UHGV virus genome: UHGV-0118819
Strand: one strand, 5' to 3'
Source of the DNA: a virus
DNA: 42,305 nt
Shown here: piece after piece, positions 27,276 to 27,321 of the stretch
How the letters are laid out: each line of letters begins with the position of its first letter
How positions within the stretch are numbered: position 1 is the stretch's first letter
Translations under genes and position numbers: made by a program
Notes under the pieces: model-generated
The model's database searches: none
Told to the model about the DNA's origin: nothing
The model's input: the letters and a program-made list of their open reading frames with translations, nothing else

Positions 27276-27321
27276 ATTCGTAATGCGAAGGTCGTAGGTT
27301 CGACTCCTATTATCGGCACCA
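27276..27321 (+). other. attP core: 3' portion of a tRNA-Thr gene (thrW-like, anticodon CGU loop to CCA end)
   Basis: ATTCGTAATGCGAAGGTCGTAGGTTCGACTCCTATTATCGGCACCA matches recalled 3' part of E. coli thrW; no 5' half; 14 bp from integrase stop. Confidence 0.7.

Follow-up and report, generated by a model that had tools for sequence, protein, structure and literature searches.

Comparative sequence analysis indicates that positions 27276-27321 of the virus genome UHGV-0118819 (42,305 nucleotides, the whole of which is referred to here as the window) are the attP by which a temperate phage of E. coli and Shigella enters the tRNA gene thrW, with regeneration of the tRNA. Together with the genes and candidate control sites around it, in the region 27062-28720, this segment very probably forms a lambda-style module for integration into thrW, complete and in its excised (POP') form, that belongs to a temperate lambdoid phage. 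Integration into thrW with restoration of the tRNA 3' end had been claimed in a preliminary description of the window, and is borne out by identity to the host gene, the junctions of a related lysogen, the empty chromosomal site, and existing annotation and literature.

The attP core and its chromosomal counterpart

The common core on the plus strand at 27276-27321 (ATTCGTAATGCGAAGGTCGTAGGTTCGACTCCTATTATCGGCACCA) corresponds to the part of thrW that opens with the final base of the anticodon stem's 5' strand and closes with the CCA. In E. coli 13C1065T (NZ_CP019259) a tRNA-Thr(CGT) gene (thrW, tRNA-Thr CGU) adjoins proA, and its last 46 nucleotides, ending at the CCA, are identical to the core at 46 of 46 positions. 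Thus, the alignment to the host gene which the preliminary description had recommended supports its assignment of the segment to the anticodon-loop-to-CCA part of thrW. Leftward of 27276 the two sequences diverge (..GGTGCTACAG in the window versus ..GAGCAGCGC in thrW; in longer form ..TGGTGCTACAG versus ..TAGAGCAGCGC). As the bases 5' of the core are unlike thrW there is no 5' half of the tRNA, just as had been stated, and neither ARAGORN nor Rfam calls a complete tRNA with the cloverleaf of a functional gene at 27276-27321. The segment combines identity to a tRNA 3' end up to the CCA and lack of a 5' half with phage DNA on both sides, an adjoining gene for a tyrosine recombinase with catalytic motifs, and an excisionase gene beside int. 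The exact 46-mer also occurs in the attP regions of HK446, mEp213, SfV and ST104, and a 46-base att core has been printed for SfI and stated to be identical in SfII, SfV, SfX and P22 (PMC3636060). The gap between the CCA and the int stop codon is 14 bp (27322-27335), as given in the preliminary description, and the spacing is equal in SfV and ST104. Within the core, the anticodon-loop equivalent TTCGTAA (27277-27283, plus strand, with the anticodon CGT at 27279-27281) is the putative 7-bp overlap region, and strand exchange most likely occurs in it, as suggested by where the identity to thrW starts on the left and by precedent. Integration sites of an anticodon-loop sublocation class were reportedly recognized by Williams in 2002.

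Direct support for the use of thrW comes from a prophage of E. coli 13C1065T (NZ_CP019259), whose Int is 99% identical to that of the window. Here the order is proA - thrW (complete) - int - xis ... tail - invertase - P arm - 46-mer - yagP/paoD, i.e. a complete tRNA gene and a duplicated core surround the prophage. This prophage is about 95-98% identical to the window at the nucleotide level over most of the morphogenesis region and 98% identical over int-xis, while other modules differ. Window positions 27276-29564 align to its thrW-int junction, with the first aligned base being the first base of the core, and positions 26707-27390 align to its tail-side junction. To the right of the core the phage allele is found at the int-side junction and the host allele at the tail-side junction, with the first polymorphism at the third base past the CCA. 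These flanking polymorphisms place the crossover within 27276-27323. The uninterrupted target was represented by the two host flanks joined in silico, and of 5426 E. coli genomes 948 contain this proA-thrW-yagP empty site in unbroken form (a single location accounting for at least 80% of the query); the matches listed, which include ATCC 8739 (NC_010468), are all identical over their full length. With the tail-side junction as a search query we found no lysogen of exactly this phage among the genomes searched; the matches contained either the full-length invertase (13C1065T) or the tail/invertase-stump module joined to IntS at argW (E2348/69). Hence, the mapping of attL and attR in lysogens, which had been suggested as a check, places a related prophage with a 99%-identical Int at thrW, and does so for this relative rather than for the same phage.

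These junctions also bear on two other explanations of the 46-mer. One is that it is a decayed phage-borne pseudo-tRNA with no role in recombination, a notion that gains some appeal from the two tRNA genes, tRNA-Asn and tRNA-Thr(TGT), which the phage carries at 2366-2521. However, the 46-mer is 100% identical to the host thrW and not to the phage tRNA-Thr(TGT); it is single-copy in the window even when 3 mismatches are allowed, and 100 dinucleotide-preserving shuffles yielded no copy of it. Furthermore, its start coincides exactly with the switch in homology at the lysogen junctions, and it lies beside int at the same distance as in SfV and ST104. The other explanation treats the window as a piece of chromosome in which the 46-mer is the attL or attR junction between prophage and chromosome, since in the chromosomes of E. 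coli the ends of prophages are marked by partial tRNA copies of just this sort. Against this, both flanks are phage DNA and have the same contiguous arrangement in the genomes of free phages, the window shows the order tail-attP-int whereas the corresponding flanks are about 42 kb apart in a lysogen, and there are no host genes beside the site in the window. We consider the former exceedingly improbable and the latter equally so, and reject both given the phage flanks on either side and the exact thrW identity beside int. The contiguity of P arm, core and int in the order tail-attP-int instead identifies the window as the excised or virion form of the genome and not a chromosomal junction.

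The thrW locus may also record other integration events. In PSS-08-1 the match to the tail-side junction breaks 3 bp past the CCA, where the flanks diverge, and another integrase follows. In this strain the junction (3328-4733 of the extracted stretch) has, after the 46-mer, a HEPN-domain gene in addition to the other tyrosine integrase, which suggests that a second element sits in tandem at thrW. Separately, an SfX-type P' arm has left a 69-bp fossil directly past the CCA of the empty thrW in E. coli (compare window 27322-27390). This fossil contains a single frameshift, has kept both TGTGCC sites, an IHF consensus and the codons ..NVVYLNMG*, and differs from the window at 5 of 69 positions and from HK446, mEp213 and the 13C1065T prophage (with Int ending in ..NAR*) at 8-10. 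As the fossil is closer to the window and shares its ..NMG* end, the C-terminus of the window Int represents the allele that was fossilised in the host.

Integrase, excisionase and the arms of attP

The int gene (27336-28496, minus strand) encodes a 386-aa tyrosine integrase of the SfX/HK446 ('CP4-6') type, which matches PF00589 (E = 1.3e-35, 123 bits) and in alignments displays the GLRRSN, HDLRHTW and RYAHL motifs (R...HxxR...Y). Its amino acid identity is 99.2% to the HK446 Int, as against 54.5% to that of ST104 (P22-type) and 55.3% to that of SfV, and the DNA of int is about 97% identical to SfX int. The divergence extends across all domains (60%, 48% and 60% for residues 1-65, 66-175 and 176-360, respectively). 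Among P22, ST104 and ST64T the Int proteins agree to about 98% (PMC2629481). The earlier designation of this protein as a P22-like integrase therefore holds at the level of the family and fails at the level of the type, as the protein is 54-55% identical to P22-type integrases, is accompanied by candidate TGTGCC arm sites, and belongs to the SfX/HK446 type. In the same vein, of the features that strictly characterize the P22 Int/att system, the window has the 46-bp thrW core, and neither a close Int (54.5% to ST104) nor GGGAC arm sites. The adjacent xis gene (28373-28720, minus strand), which shares 124 nt at its 3' end with the start of int, codes for a 115-aa excisionase (recombination directionality factor) with a PF12728 HTH_17 domain. 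This protein is 41-42% identical to the Xis of ST104 and SfV, and its counterpart is annotated as excisionase in HK446 and mEp213.

Megablast searches with 26700-28600 against phage records recovered HK446, HK542, HK75, ECP1, mEpX2, mEp213, mEp043 and SfX at 96.6-97.5% identity across the P arm, core, int and xis. The attP is already annotated in HK446, HK542, mEpX2, mEp213 and mEp043; for example, the HK446 record reads 'attP; prophage integration site; similar to thrW tRNA gene and ptwF' and that of mEp213 'prophage attachment site (type CP4-6)'. The HK446/SfX-type modules share with the window the core, the arm-type candidates, the IHF motif and the hairpin described below, but have another allele over the first ~45 bp of the P' arm, with the last two codons giving an Int end of ..NAR* rather than the ..NMG* of the window. 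Their neighbouring tail-fibre/invertase-stump module is also different from that of the window, as expected in a mosaic. The distance of this Int from the P22-type (just 54-55% identity) and the difference in arm-site sequence could be taken to mean that the core is derived from thrW while the Int variant now prefers another target. Yet the chromosomal target is chosen by the core, which is identical, and not by the arm sites, and a prophage with a 99%-identical Int resides at thrW. Likewise, the annotations of HK446 and mEp213 name thrW/ptwF as related host sites, and SfX, with int DNA about 97% identical, has been reported with the same 46-base core (PMC3636060). A change of target is hence very unlikely, and we retain thrW as the site used by this Int.

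The arms flanking the core carry short repeats which we propose as candidate Int arm-type sites, all on the plus strand. The P arm has two tandem candidates, TTGTGCCGTA and TTTGTGACAT (27151-27170; 10-11 bp apart; repeat family D1/D2), which are invariant in HK446 and mEp213, and a third, TTTGTGCCAT (27202-27211; repeat family D2). On the P' arm two further tandem candidates, TTGTGCCGTA and TTTGTGCCAT, form direct repeats within the last int codons (27369-27388). Relative to the core start, the five TGTG(C/A)C motifs lie at -124, -113, -72, +94 and +105, and the TGGGAC-type motifs of ST104 and SfV at -125, about -114, -60, +94 and +105. Thus, across two Int lineages the offsets on the P' arm are identical, those of the P-arm pair agree within 1 bp, and the third P-arm site is displaced by 12 bp. 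In contrast, the letters of the candidate sites differ, with TGTGCC/TGTGAC in the lineage of SfX, HK446 and the window versus GGGAC in that of P22, ST104 and SfV. A three-plus-two arrangement of arm sites is said to have been described for the P22 attP by Smith-Mungo et al. in 1994, and the three-plus-two layout seen here appears, from the sequence, to match it. A candidate IHF site, H' (AATCAAGTAGTTA; 27326-27338, plus strand), is situated 4 bp past the core and overlaps the int stop codon. It is the sole perfect match to the IHF consensus WATCAANNNNTTR in the 42.3-kb window, and the core of this motif is kept in all five aligned attP sites. The presence of candidate arm repeats on both arms and of an IHF consensus at the expected positions is consistent with a lambda-like attP layout.

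The module may be compared with two classical systems. As in the window, the P22-type phages (P22, ST104 and ST64T) and SfV, SfI and SfII have the 46-bp core, the 14-bp spacing and an overlapping xis, together with repeat motifs at matching offsets, an IHF motif past the core and a homologous P-arm hairpin. They differ in Int (54-55% identity), in Xis (41-42%), in their GGGAC arm candidates, in having the hairpin ~90 bp nearer the core, and in the gtrABC cassette beyond the P arm, which is missing from the window. Lambda likewise has Int sites on both arms, of which one on the P' side falls within the 3' end of int according to its record; however, it has a 15-bp core and an intergenic attB (gal-bio), involves no tRNA gene, and shows no sequence similarity to the window. 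The Int of lambda is heterobivalent, and in that phage too a hairpin lies across attP from int.

A conserved hairpin and the mosaic region beyond the P arm

A terminator scan detected, with attP between it and int, a hairpin with a 14-15-bp stem (27079-27114, minus strand), a candidate terminator for int-sense transcripts. The scan pairs 15 bases in the stem, and the fold has a predicted energy of -24.2 kcal/mol (z = -2.35). On the int-sense strand the hairpin is followed by GCCTCAGTTTTGTC; the T-rich tail after it (CTCAGTTTTGTCTAA; 27062-27076, minus strand) is homologous to the segment of ST104 and SfV in which GGGAC/GAGAC motifs are paired. We compared six att regions, those of the window, HK446, mEp213, SfV, ST104 and the IntS/argW prophage of E2348/69: the tail CAGTTTTGTC (CGTTTTTGTC in ST104) is nearly invariant in them, the stem is also kept, and the consensus structure is retained across three integrase types with two compensatory pairs. 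In the E2348/69 prophage the hairpin is found ~20 bp past the intS stop codon. In P22-type attP sites paired GGGAC motifs flank the homologous T-tract. The T-tract starts 5-6 nt after the stem on the int-sense strand, which is atypical of an intrinsic terminator. We propose that the element at 27062-27114 is probably the int terminator; it may mediate a sib-like retroregulation, and it looks like a plus-strand terminator closing the tail genes as well. Its position across attP from int means that it would be parted from int upon integration, which is the geometry of lambda tI/sib. A simple terminator scan of lambda 27300-27860 did not pick up tI, and we found no sequence link to sib there; the analogy is therefore one of geometry alone. 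The hairpin is also a mosaic joint, at which blocks of homology to different phages start or end: phi80, HK106 and the E2348/69 prophage share the sequence from 26945 to about 27120-27130, and SfX and mEp213 that from ~27065 onward.

In the two gtr-carrying phages compared, SfV and ST104, the gtr cassette adjoins attP beyond the P arm. The order in SfV is tail fibre assembly - gtrV - gtrB - gtrA - core - int, that in ST104 is equivalent (tail - gtrC - gtrB - gtrA - attP - int), and the published account puts gtrABC directly before attP, with int and xis coming after it (PMC3636060). The preliminary description had rightly noted the absence of these genes: tblastn with six Gtr proteins detected no Gtr homologue in the whole window (best E = 0.15), nor is there a cassette immediately beyond the P arm. 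It had, however, located gtr in such phages between attP and int, and in SfV and ST104 gtr is instead across attP from int. In the window the place of gtr is taken by the tail-fibre assembly gene (26347-26715), a 61-aa ORF (26721-26906) that is a stump of a DNA invertase of the Hin/Pin type with its C-terminal HTH_7 domain, and ~370 bp of non-coding DNA. The 13C1065T prophage has a full 187-aa invertase gene and an invertible tail-fibre segment, and the E2348/69 prophage has the same stump as the window. The stump in these two, as opposed to the full invertase of 13C1065T, implies that the tail-fibre switch was deleted in the lineage of the window. The non-coding DNA additionally contains, at 26946-26983, a 12-bp interrupted stem-loop (AGCCGCAGC...GCTGCGGCT) common to phi80, HK106 and HK446, with a T-tract on neither strand. 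An Rfam search of 26500-27800 (E <= 1) had as its sole match, and a partial one, the CssrB terminator stem at 26925-26980 (E = 0.05; 22 bits, where the gathering score is 76), which we dismissed as a generic stem-loop.

The window as a whole is a mosaic lambdoid genome, and no phage record covers at least 80% of 20000-42305. Its early region is closest to mEpX2, HK620 and HK140, and its contractile-tail morphogenesis genes match the prophages of 13C1065T and E2348/69. ARAGORN and Rfam (gathering scores) call two tRNAs in the whole window and nothing else, namely an intact tRNA-Asn(GTT) (2366-2440) and an intact tRNA-Thr(TGT) (2446-2521) just upstream of the lysis genes. Both are absent from the 13C1065T prophage, and the thrW-derived core bears no relation to the tRNA-Thr(TGT).

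Proposed mechanism and implications

We propose that Int, acting as a heterobivalent tyrosine recombinase, probably binds the candidate arm-type sites at 27151-27170, 27202-27211 and 27369-27388, while IHF would bend the DNA at the candidate site 27326-27338. The resulting intasome would pair the core (27276-27321) with the identical 3' part of the chromosomal thrW, with strand exchange most likely inside 27277-27283. The predicted prophage would have the order proA-thrW(complete)-int...tail-P arm-46-mer-host, and the tRNA would stay intact because the phage brings an identical 3' end. Xis (28373-28720) would direct excision, and the hairpin and T-tract at 27062-27114, lying downstream of int, would be cut off from int on integration.

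This attP is an ordinary, textbook one, already published and annotated in near-identical phage modules. It touches no open question, and the switch in arm sites, the P'-arm fossil and the hairpin at a mosaic joint are small evolutionary notes. The occurrence of two Int lineages (~55% identical) with one thrW core, but with the candidate arm-site sequence switched from GGGAC to TGTGCC, allows the tentative suggestion, which we think doubtful on present evidence, that their intasomes assemble orthogonally and that integration at a fossil-bearing thrW amounts to a reaction of attP with an attL-like site. If true, a nearly complete attP would be left at the tail-side junction, and this could alter the Xis dependence of excision. 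For annotation, the identification of this attP fixes the integration locus of the phage as thrW, beside proA, and shows the window to be the genome in its excised or virion form. The phage is also assigned by it to the SfX/HK446 integration type, without the O-antigen-modifying gtr cassette seen in SfV and ST104.
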